Positions 51,401-54,400 of a stretch of DNA of 64,000 nucleotides are shown here, piece by piece. Source of the stretch: Escherichia coli (GTDB taxonomy: Bacteria > Pseudomonadota > Gammaproteobacteria > Enterobacterales > Enterobacteriaceae). Position 1 is the stretch's first letter. Each line of letters begins with the position of its first letter. The stretch lies in the NCBI RefSeq assembly GCF_003790525.1, contig NZ_CP033635.1, one strand, 5' to 3'. A program made the position numbers.

Positions 51401-54400
51401 AGATATCTTCTGGTTTGTATAGGAATTAACTATTGAATATGTCGCCTGAAATCAGAAATCAAAAAATACAAATGACAGTTAACTCCCCACCAACCACTGC
51501 GGTTGGTGGGGAGGACTTATTTCGTTTTTACGTTTTTCTCCATAAGTGAATCAATGTAATCAGCGTACCACTGCATCATTTCACGACGTCCATCCAGATA
51601 TTGCGCATGGTTATAAGTGCCACGCATGACGTTTTTATCAACATGAGCAAGCTGGAGTTCAATCCAGGCTGAGCTGAAATCATGGTCATGGAGAATGGTG
51701 CTGAAGGTATGACGAAATCCGTGGGCTGTTGTCAGGGCATGCCAGCCTGACTGCTCAAGGAATTCATTGATACACTTGCGGTTTCGCGGGAGATCTTTTC
51801 TGAATGCACCAGGAATAATAAAGGCGGAATTACGCGATTCAGTGCGTGTTTTTATCTCCTCCAGTAACGCCAGTACCTGGCGTGAAAGCGGCACAACGTG
51901 CGGTCGTCGCATTTTCATTCTTTCTTTCGGAATAACCCACAGGGCCTCCGTGAAATTAATTTCGTCCCAGGTTGCCAGTCGCAGTTCTCCGGTGCGAACA
52001 GCAGTCAGAACCAGCATCTGCGTTGCCAGCGACATCAGATTTTCGGATGCCGTTATCTGATGCATGAAAGCTCCCATCTGTTCTTCAGAAAGCGTCCTGC
52101 GCTGTTGTTTTTCAGGAGGAAGCAGTACCCCGCTGAGTGTCGATGCCGGATTAACGGTAGCACGTCCTGTTGCTATGGCATAATCAAAAACCTGCGCACA
52201 GAGCTGGCGTGTTTTACGCAGTGCTTCAAGTTTTCCCTGTTCTTCTATAGTCCTCAGAACGTTCAGTATTTCCATGGGGCGGATCCCGGTCACAGGACGG
52301 TTTCCAAGAGCAGGGAAAACATGATTTTCAAGTCTTGCACGCTGATCTGCCTGGTAACCTGTTGTCCATCGACGTGCCATATGGGTAAGCAGCTCCTCTG
52401 CAATGGTGCGAAATGTGCAGGCCATACTTTCCCTGATGGCAAGTTTTCGCGCCTGTTTTTCATACGACGGATCTTTACCTTCAGCCAGAAGTTTCCGTGC
52501 TTCATCCCGCTTCTGACGAGCCTGAGCCAGTGATATGTCAGGATAGACACCAATCACCAGTTTCTTTTCCTTACCGGCAAAGCGGTACTTCAGATTCCAG
52601 TAACGGGCACCGGATTTTTTGACAAGAAGATAAAGGCCCTGACCGTCAGAAAGTTTGTAATCCCTGTCAGCAGGTTTAGCCGACTCAATTTGTCGAACAG
52701 TAAGTGGCATGATGTTACCCCTGCAATGTAGCCCCCATAATAGCCCCCAAAATCATCTTGATGTTCATGGAATATGATTTACCCCCAGAGAGAAGGAATT
52801 TCTTATGATACCTTATTTCAAAGGGGGTTAAAGGGGGAGGGGTTATCTCTGTTGAAATCAGTTGATATCAATAGATCCTCCCCAGAGGGGCGAGGGGACC
52901 GTTCGAACTCGTATTTGACTTTGTCAACAATAATAAAGGGAGCTTTCGCTCCCTTGTTAGATTACGATTTTCTCATTAACAGCCACAGGCTGATTAAGAA
53001 GAAGCTGGCGCTTGGCAACAGTGCGCCGATGATCGGCGGGATGCCATAAACCAACGTCAGCGGGCCGAAGATCTGGTCCAGTACGTAGAAGACAAAACCG
53101 AAGCTGATACCGGTGACCACACGCACGCCCATCGGTACGCTACGCAGTGGGCCAAAGATAAACGACAGCGCCATCAGCATCATCACCGCCACGGATAGCG
53201 GCTGGAAGATTTTGCTCCACATGTTGAGCTGATAACGTCCGGCATCCTGACCGCTCGACTTCAGATACTTCACATAGTTGTGCAAACCACTGATGGAGAG
53301 TGCATCCGGGTCCAGCGCCACCACGCCCAGTTTGTCTGGCGTGAGGTTGGTTTTCCAGGTGCCGCTCACCGTCTGCGAACCGGTGATCTGTTTCGGATTG
53401 GTCAGATCAGATTCATCAACCTGCGACAGACGCCAGACTTTATGTTCCGGGTCAAACTTCGCGGTAGCGGCATAACGTACGGATTGCAGACGACGATTCT
53501 CGTTAAAGGCATAAATACTGATGCCACCTAACTCTTCGTCACCTTTAACCCGCTCAATGTAGACGAAGTTGTTGCCATCTTTCGCCCATAAGCCTTGCTG
53601 AGTGGAGAGCAACGAGCCGCCGTACATCGCCTGCGCACGGTAGTTACGCGCCATCTGCTCGCCCTGCGGCGCGACCCATTCACCAATCGCCATCGTCAGC
53701 AAGACCAGCGGAATGGCGGTTTTCATCACCGACAGCGCCACCTGCATACGGGTAAAACCAGAAGCCTGCATGACTACCAGTTCGCTGCGCTGCGCCAGCA
53801 TCCCAAGACCAAGCAACGCCCCAAGCAGAGCCGCCATCGGGAAGAAGATTTGCACATCTTTCGGCACGCTCAGCAAGGTATACATTCCTGCGCCTAACGC
53901 GTCGTAACTCCCCTGCCCGGCTTTTTTCAGCTGATCGACAAACTTGATAATGCCCGACAGCGACACCAGCATGAACAGCGTCATCATGATGGTGGTGAAA
54001 ATAGTTTTACCGATATAGCGGTCAAGTACGCCAAAAGGTTGCATCACACCGCTCCTTTACGCGAAAAACTGGCGCGCAGGCGGCGGACCGGCACGGTGTC
54101 CCAAAGGTTGAGAACAATCGCCAAAGCCAGATAAATCAGGTTAACGGTCCACATCCACAGCGTCGGGTCCAGCTTACCTTTACCGCCGTTCGATTTCAGG
54201 GAGGTCTGGATCAGGAAGAACAACAGATACAGCAGCATGGCTGGCAGCATCGATAGTACGCGTCCCTGACGCGGGTTAACCACGCTCAGCGGTACGACCA
54301 TAAGTGCCATCATAAACACGGTGAACACCAACGTGATACGCCAGTTCAGTTCTGCGCGAGCACGATCGGTGTCAGTGTTCCACAATGTGCGCATGTCCAT

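Follow-up and report, generated by a model that had tools for sequence, protein, structure and literature searches.

Where does a P4/CP4-type island attach when no tRNA gene lies beside its integrase? The question is raised by Escherichia coli contig NZ_CP033635.1 (RefSeq assembly GCF_003790525.1), of which we analysed one stretch of 64,000 nucleotides, hereafter the window. In this integrase family the bacterial attachment site (attB) typically lies in the 3' end of a tRNA or tmRNA gene, ~150–400 nt upstream of the integrase gene (int), a trait that is not strictly defining and that was missing here. ARAGORN found no tRNA or tmRNA across the whole window, and Rfam found no tRNA-like sequence at E ≤ 1 in 52500–53100. 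A previous inspection of the bare sequence (the sequence-only reading) had reported a P4-type integrase adjoining lptG and no tRNA in between. Both observations hold, the first by agreement of Pfam domains and open reading frame (ORF) calls. It had also seen no recognizable attachment site, and proposed either an atypical site or the loss of the native one by rearrangement. We found that the integrase–lptG interval is a complete attL, made of an island arm, a 13-bp core and the right half of a BoxC/PIT/TMECO repeat. The island very probably entered the chromosome by integrase-driven, site-specific attP x attB recombination into the BoxC centre, a route open at multiple loci. The features of the junction are:

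51517–52710, minus strand: integrase gene, an intact ORF of 397 aa, the P4/CP4-type tyrosine recombinase of the island
52711–52877: island (P) arm of attL on the int side, with ...TTGATATCAATAGATC as its end; homology breaks off right at the core
52730–52749, minus strand: two tandem arm-type repeats TGGGGGCTA on the int strand, candidate binding sites of the N-terminal domain
52780–52787, direct orientation: C5/G5 motif TACCCCCA, read from the sequence
52823–52829, inverted orientation: C5/G5 motif GGGGGTT, read from the sequence
52833–52839, inverted orientation: C5/G5 motif GGGGGAG, read from the sequence
52878–52890: att core CTCCCCAGAGGGG, the predicted 13-bp crossover segment, common to attB, attL and attR
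52891–52903: right arm of the split BoxC/PIT/TMECO, CGAGGGGACCGTT, chromosomal and not part of the island
52904–52961, minus strand: native 3' flank of lptG, with K-12 homology to 52918 and SMS-3-5 homology through the whole BoxC
52936–52955, minus strand: intrinsic terminator of lptG, an 8-bp stem followed by a T-rich tail (terminator scan)
52962–54047, minus strand: lptG, the chromosomal gene flanking attL, 98% identical to K-12 lptG

The domain architecture of the integrase is of the P4/CP4 (DUF4102) type. Pfam recognized Arm-DNA-bind_3 (PF13356, residues 3–87, E = 8.5e-28), the core-binding domain Phage_int_M (PF22022, residues 100–194, 3.7e-28) and the catalytic domain Phage_integrase (PF00589, residues 206–371, 1.6e-20). 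The PDB matches were N-domains of CP4-like integrases (3ju0/3jtz, 4e-27) and core-binding domains. Catalytic motifs AVR-TGEL, HGFRH, LAH and GTY, corresponding to R..HxxR..H..Y, were assigned in the translation by inspection only. The protein scored 271 bits against NCBIfam NF007246 (PRK09692 integrase), with a curated cut-off of 434, and is a relative of that family outside that particular model. It is separated by 251 bp from lptG, with lptF, pepA, holC and valS further on; K-12 holC-pepA-lptF-lptG aligns at 98% with window positions 57336–52918. The terminator hairpin and G/C tracts described earlier in the interval were both located, by scan and in the sequence.

The far end of the island was recognized in another genome. 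A megablast of 51300–53400 against 5,426 complete E. coli genomes gave one genome, CM2, with the same integrase–lptG junction, 98% identical to that of the window. There, lptG is followed by a clean insertion of 92 kb that extends to yjgR and has a matching attR (...GTGCCCCTCACCCTAACCCT-CTCCCCATAGGGG-AATGGTGAAA...). The genes beyond it, yjgR, idnRTOD, idnK, ahr and leuX, are undisturbed, and leuX has an integrase of its own. The core CTCCCCAnAGGGG, at 52878–52890 in the window, has a second copy at the other end of the CM2 insertion. The suspected non-tRNA site between lptG and its usual neighbor is therefore real, with yjgR as the neighbor, and an attachment site is recognizable in the interval as a direct-repeat core, located by comparison with island-free genomes.

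By joining attR-left to the attL-right of the window we predicted an empty site of 162 nt, which matched 162/162 at 99.4% in many genomes and was covered ≥80% in 1,798 of the 5,426. Its form in SMS-3-5 is GTGCCCCTCACCCTAACCCTCTCCCCAAAGGGGCGAGGGGACCGTTCGAAC. The clean insertion in CM2 and the uninterrupted empty site in these 1,798 genomes contradict a loss of the native site by rearrangement. The lptG–yjgR spacer is dimorphic: it carries a repetitive extragenic palindrome (REP) and no BoxC in K-12, and a BoxC in the SMS-3-5 type allele (region 4402–4561 of the K-12 extract L007 compared with 314–431 of the SMS-3-5 extract L010). Because K-12 carries the REP allele, its homology stops at 52918. 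A vague 'ACTTTG' junction, derived from the K-12 comparison alone, was dropped once the BoxC allele was found.

The same type of island was found at other loci. Eight further genomes had a 97–98% identical integrase, with the match ending ~190 nt upstream of the integrase start, and the genes adjoining it were gcvP, yhfS, ycjD (twice), zntA, ypfG and glnH (twice). Homology ended just after ...CAATAGATC-CTCCCCAnAGGGG in every case. Counting CM2, the islands of nine genomes occupy seven loci: lptG|yjgR, gcvP|ygfF, zntA|tusA, yhfS|frlR, ypfG|tktB, ycjD|fabI and glnH|glnP, the far flank at each being the K-12 neighbor of the near flank. Only 16–17 of the 5,426 genomes had the attR arm, and these coincide with the integrase carriers. 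Every attR had the form (host)CCCCTCACCCTAACCCT-CTCCCCAnAGGGG-AATGGTGAAA(island). Both island ends showed CTCCCCAnAGGGG in CM2 and six other genomes; the window itself shows attL only. At the five loci where attB, attL and attR were all at hand, attB-left equaled attR-left, attB-right equaled attL-right, and the 13-bp core was shared. The empty site (attR-left + core + attL-right) was intact at 7/7 intergenic loci in island-free genomes. For glnH|glnP it matched 193/193 at 100% in 5,402 genomes, and for the BoxC allele of ypfG|tktB 193/193 at 100% in only 830. K-12 holds the intact site at gcvP, zntA, ycjD and yhfS. Integrase orientation was constant at the seven BoxC loci, int always lying next to the CGAGGGGAC arm. 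This constancy may be due to the asymmetric central triplet (A-N-A vs T-N-T), as in the overlap regions of tyrosine recombinases.

One genome had a different layout. Br_112_kylling (NZ_CP182371.1) carried attL at 2,567,9xx (plus strand) by glnH, and the attR arm at 4,195,234–4,195,569 (minus strand). Its island ends are 1.6 Mb apart on opposite strands, compared with 41–115 kb on the same strand in the other eight 97–98% genomes, which suggests a large chromosomal inversion or a recombination between two att/BoxC sites.

To our knowledge, BoxC has been known since the early 1990s without an assigned function, and we know of no explanation for the variability of its loci. The attB recognized here has the layout CCCCTCACCCTAACCCT-CTCCCCAnAGGGG-CGAGGGGAC, a GC-rich interspersed palindrome of 36–45 bp, and its reverse complement, CCCTCGCCCCTTTGGGGAGAGGGTTAGGGTGAGGGG, is the type A 'mm' form of BoxC/PIT/TMECO (compared with PMC4666352). 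The reverse complement of the SMS-3-5 attB, CCCTCGCCC-CTTTG-GGGAGAGGG-TTA-GGGTGAGGG, fits the consensus of this intergenic, multi-copy element, CCCTCNCCC-N3-6-GGGNGAGGG-N3-GGGNGAGGG (PMC4666352). There are 23 BoxC copies in K-12 (Holder et al. 2015, PMC4666352), and ~14 copies per genome carry the core palindrome. Four entries of Table 1 in that paper, which we checked on the K-12 sequence, are loci of our islands: entry 9 (1.351 Mb) is fabI|ycjD, 11 (3.046 Mb) is ygfF|gcvP, 15 (3.505 Mb) is frlR|yhfS and 16 (3.609 Mb) is zntA|tusA. The full BoxC pattern had no match in the window, as expected for a split site with the right arm only, and the att core had one match vs 0.06 expected. The right arm at 52891–52903 is identical to the SMS-3-5 empty site, and differs between loci as diverged BoxC copies do. 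The gcvP|ygfF spacer holds two BoxC copies, one of type B (CCCTCGCCCTTTCAGGGAGAGGGCCGGGGTGAGGGT) and one of type A, and the island uses only the type A copy, with its CTCCCC-N3-GGGG centre. Intrinsic terminators or REP elements, considered as targets because the island always lies 3' of a gene, were ruled out, since all attR flanks show the BoxC left arm.

The attL arm was 97–100% conserved among islands at the seven different loci. Within it, AGCCCCCA occurs at 52730–52737 and 52742–52749, two exact copies vs 0.37 expected by chance. The arrangement AGCCCCCA-N4-AGCCCCCA followed by TTGnTGTnCATGGA is present in both island arms, and the pair was found in the attR arm of 8/8 islands examined. 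A tandem GGGGGC-N6-7-GGGGGC ~50 nt upstream of int was detected in 27 of 76 relatives; these included 13 of the 15 nearest ones in species-representative genomes, a group that is mainly tRNA-associated. This tandem is most likely the arm-type site bound by the N-terminal domain of the integrase. As it is common to tRNA-targeting relatives, the G/C tracts noticed in the sequence-only reading are a family-wide trait best explained as arm-type sites, and not incidental. With the arm repeats family-wide, the changed feature of the BoxC lineage would be its core specificity. The C5/G5 motifs of 52780–52839 were kept in islands at all loci and are presumed to be functional.

More diverged integrases were found in ulaE. 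Of the 5,426 complete genomes, 90 had int plus the attL arm at ≥80% coverage, and by nucleotide identity to the window they were distributed as follows:

95–99%: 9 genomes, at the seven BoxC loci
90–95%: 16 genomes, at glnH|glnP where sampled
84%: 7 genomes, in ulaE
~79%: ~58 genomes, in ulaE

In the 84% lineage the island interrupts the coding sequence of ulaE at CTCCCCGGCGGGG and has ulaD as its neighbor. Three sampled genomes of the ~79% lineage had the island at the same palindrome in opposite orientation, next to the 3' part of ulaE and ulaF. The site is at the 5' end of the gene, in the codons for ALPAGE, so that ulaE is truncated in ~65 of the 5,426 complete genomes. The sequence that ulaE has in common with BoxC is only CTCCCCGCCGGGGAG; the core palindrome occurs in ulaE by chance. 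The core, and not the whole BoxC repeat, thus appears to be the main determinant of site choice. Examples of these insertions are AR_0085 for the 84% lineage, and uropathogenic E. coli (UPEC) 26-1, FDAARGOS_1283 and NT1W22 for the 79% lineage.

Outside E. coli, the best relatives in species-representative genomes (one per species) were ≤58% identical, with none above 58%. Among 56 distant relatives, 46 had a tRNA gene (Phe, Arg, SeC, Asn, Gly, Thr or Ser) ending 170–400 nt upstream of int, and most of the remaining ones had a tRNA 3' fragment; the core was present in none. Intermediate relatives were found in the protein database, in Enterobacter asburiae (78%), Serratia fonticola (68%), E. 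kobei (68%) and E. ludwigii (65% and 61%), plus an Enterobacterales protein at 63%. No tRNA was found near the integrases 61–78% identical from Enterobacter and Serratia. About 190 nt upstream of int, these relatives had a BoxC-like junction of the form host-CCCTCACCC(T/C)AACCCTCT-CCCnnnGGG-AGGATC-island (the host part also written CCCTCACCCTAACCCTCT). The same E. ludwigii protein was found at three loci: acs, nrdD and a third one. The core variant in Enterobacter and Serratia has C3/G3 instead of C4/G4 and matches the other BoxC subtype. Core variants co-vary with integrase variants, with CTCCCCnnnGGGG in E. coli and CTCTCCCnnnGGGAG in Enterobacter and Serratia.

In a neighbor-joining tree the BoxC-associated integrases all fell into a single clade, with tRNA-associated ones around it. 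Sister lineages at 56–59% identity (Salmonella next to alkA, Citrobacter, Budvicia) had neither tRNA nor BoxC and adjoin other short C/G palindromes; the closest tRNA-associated relatives were ~55% identical or less. We lean, with some reserve, toward a clade of integrases in Enterobacterales (at least 61% identical; E. coli, Enterobacter, Lelliottia, Serratia) that has abandoned tRNA genes for BoxC as a multi-copy attB. It would allow pathogenicity or fitness islands of 40–115 kb to settle at a dozen or more sites, and would be the first mechanistic link between BoxC repeats and the hypervariability of their loci. Two side observations concern these relatives. In Enterobacter, the BoxC copy downstream of nrdD had received islands of two kinds, whose integrases are 65% and 61% identical to ours. 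In another extract (L124), the core is bordered on its host side by a transposase gene of the IS110 family, and the BoxC left arm is missing there.

We propose that the island entered by conservative attP x attB recombination, with the BoxC centre in place of a tRNA gene as attB, in a BoxC copy that lies between yjgR and lptG in about one third of E. coli strains. Strand exchange, and with it the cleavage positions, would fall within the 13-bp core CTCCCC-N3-GGGG, leaving attL (island arm + core + right BoxC arm, 52711–52903) beside lptG and attR (left BoxC arm + core + island arm) beside yjgR. The integrase would catalyse the reaction, its N-terminal arm-binding domain probably binding the AGCCCCCA repeats in both island arms, as in tRNA-targeting relatives, and its core-binding and catalytic domains having switched specificity to the C4/G4 palindrome. 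As this palindrome is present in ~14 BoxC copies and in ulaE, the island could occupy many loci. The AlpA-like protein encoded on the island may direct excision. The system may still be active: seven loci in nine genomes with nearly identical integrases are an indirect sign of mobility.

Other routes to this junction were considered. K-12 has leuX with the P4-like intB eight genes beyond lptG in the same orientation, so that the island might have arrived at this tRNA gene (10 kb off in K-12), the integrase being moved to lptG by deletion or rearrangement. That history is extremely improbable: the same junction in CM2 is followed beyond the far end by intact yjgR, idnRTOD, idnK, ahr and leuX, the empty site is present in 1,798 genomes, and the same island ends recur at six other loci without a tRNA. 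If the island spread through RecA-dependent homologous recombination, or moved along with its flanking DNA, the integrase would not be needed; such spread could draw on BoxC copies that are ~90% identical over 36–45 bp and on the reported hypervariability of their loci (PMC4666352). Yet the island ends carry no BoxC arms and thus no homology past the 13-bp core, all loci share the same breakpoints down to the single base, and the ulaE site lacks any BoxC arms. The constant orientation at the seven BoxC loci and the co-variation of integrase and core also argue against it, and we regard such spread as very unlikely.

The integrase might also recognize BoxC as a folded single strand (a hairpin or intrastrand triplex), as with integron attC, and not as a duplex. 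Stable intrastrand triplexes have been obtained in vitro with oligonucleotides of BoxC (PMC4666352), and in the predicted hairpin the core makes up the stem-loop. This mode is very unlikely, given that the 61-nt attB hairpin was no stabler than shuffled controls (z = -0.87), that two lineages use the ulaE site, a 15-bp palindrome without a third block, and that attL and attR are built as in ordinary recombination between duplexes with arm sites.

Several points weigh against duplex attP x attB recombination into BoxC. The window has no attR, so that the far junction of the present strain is extrapolated from CM2. In some islands attL and attR have different nucleotides at the centre of the core (AAA/ATA in CM2, AAA/AGA at yhfS), which might reflect heteroduplex resolution in the overlap region. 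Two Enterobacter junctions (extracts L106 and L108) had the core and one arm but no full BoxC. The tree carries no support values, and the sampling of relatives was small, with 3 of ~58 genomes in the 79% group and 2 of 16 in the 90–92% group.

As for the extent of the island, direct-repeat searches for a second boundary within the window gave nothing relevant, and the island runs off the window start. Its visible body and the genes mentioned below are:

1–52877: island body visible in the window; its genes run in the same order as at the distal end of the CM2 island, beyond which yjgR follows
9252–9488, plus strand: AlpA-family DNA-binding protein (78 aa), candidate excisionase/directionality factor (Pfam Phage_AlpA PF05930, 2.6e-10; PHROG 'excisionase and transcriptional regulator', 6e-10)
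29962–32800, minus strand: tripartite ATP-independent periplasmic (TRAP) transporter, cargo
39517–41487, minus strand: TonB-dependent heme/hemoglobin receptor, cargo
42869–44140, minus strand: peptidase T paralogue, cargo
44175–45812, plus strand: DppA-like dipeptide-binding protein, cargo
15230–16435, 27915–29003 and 36463–37422 (all minus strand), and 41723–42605: insertion sequence (IS) regions

The distal module of the CM2 island (GTPase/DUF932/antirestriction/RadC/YeeU-CbtA/DUF4942) has a counterpart in the window (GTPase at 3044–3928, DUF932, antirestriction, RadC) that points out of the window start. In the present strain attR and yjgR are thus probably located beyond base 1. The far junction next to yjgR would read, on the opposite strand, AGCCCCCAatgtAGCCCCCA, ~100 nt, then TTTCACCATT-CCCCTnTGGGGAG-AGGGTTAGGGTGAGGGG. 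From coordinates, island lengths elsewhere were 41–115 kb; that of the present strain is roughly 60 kb.

Further cargo in the window includes phosphotransferase system (PTS) transporters and a YadA-like adhesin, and the cargo as a whole points to a nutrient-uptake (fitness) island and not to a classical toxin/adhesin pathogenicity island (PAI). The interior is IS-rich: transposases of the IS256, IS110 and IS66 families are present, as is a fragment of IS2 with 96% identity to the K-12 element. A ~195-bp repeat with 87% identity was found at 36010–36204 and 42606–42799, 6.6 kb apart. Window positions 51118–51516 lack the ~2-kb segment, with a tetratricopeptide repeat (TPR) protein and an ISAs1 remnant, that divides int from the EcsC gene in all nine 97–98% genomes. 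The int–EcsC arrangement and positions 51300–51431 resemble the 84% ulaE lineage instead, and therefore the island is mosaic even next to int.

An integrase family that lands on BoxC would explain at least part of the variability of BoxC loci, and PAI-type islands can do without tRNA genes. An island finder built around tRNA-flanked integrases would miss or mis-bound such elements. The same cargo was found at many loci (seven in nine genomes), and insertions may inactivate genes (ulaE) or split operons (glnH|glnP). With ~14 natural copies per genome, the compact 13-bp core might also be put to use as a tool for integration at multiple sites.

Compared with the P4/CP4-57 integrases that target tRNA or tmRNA genes (pheV, pheU, selC and leuX islands), the present one has the same three-domain structure and tandem GGGGGC arm repeats. 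Its island likewise has int at one end, an AlpA-like gene, a distal GTPase/DUF932/antirestriction/RadC/YeeU-CbtA/DUF4942 module and a short direct repeat. The attB differs: a tRNA 3' end in those systems, the centre of a multi-copy repeat here, with one island type at seven or more loci. Repeated extragenic palindromes are also targeted by IS1397 and ISKpn1 (loops of bacterial interspersed mosaic elements, BIME, and REP) and by IS110-family elements such as IS621 (REP). They share with our island the palindrome centre as a safe multi-copy landing site, but are 1–2 kb elements moved by transposases, whereas here a tyrosine recombinase with arm sites would move islands of 41–115 kb.

TMECO loci were described as hypervariable, with no mobile-element association ('we never found ... 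remnants of transposases or integrases'; PMC4666352). The BoxC of that study is the same type A 'mm' element as our attB and shares four K-12 loci with it; there it is not tied to mobile elements, whereas here an integrase-bearing island splits the repeat. In the literature searched, which covered few subscription journals, we found no paper that connects BoxC/PIT/TMECO with an integrase and none on a P4-type integrase of this multi-site kind, so that a prior description is possible. Biggel et al. (2020, PMC7686366) reported PAIs at glnP-glnH and ulaE-ulaD, each with its own site-specific integrase. Islands at two of the seven-plus loci were thus already known, and they are most likely our 79–92% relatives. 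The retrieved passages of that paper treat them as two separate single-site integrases, name no common target, be it the CTCCCC-N3-GGGG core, BoxC or the use of multiple loci, and do not list lptG|yjgR.

Non-tRNA targets are also known for the dusA-specific integrases (PMC4482086) and GIsul2 (PMC9376610), and PAISt has an 8-bp palindrome, TTCATGAA, as core (PMC4057263), a short palindromic core as here. Those systems use a single-copy site in or next to one gene, and the present island a dispersed repeat family. Its mechanism would be ordinary integrase-driven recombination; what is unusual is the class of target, a dispersed repeat that leads to integration at multiple loci.

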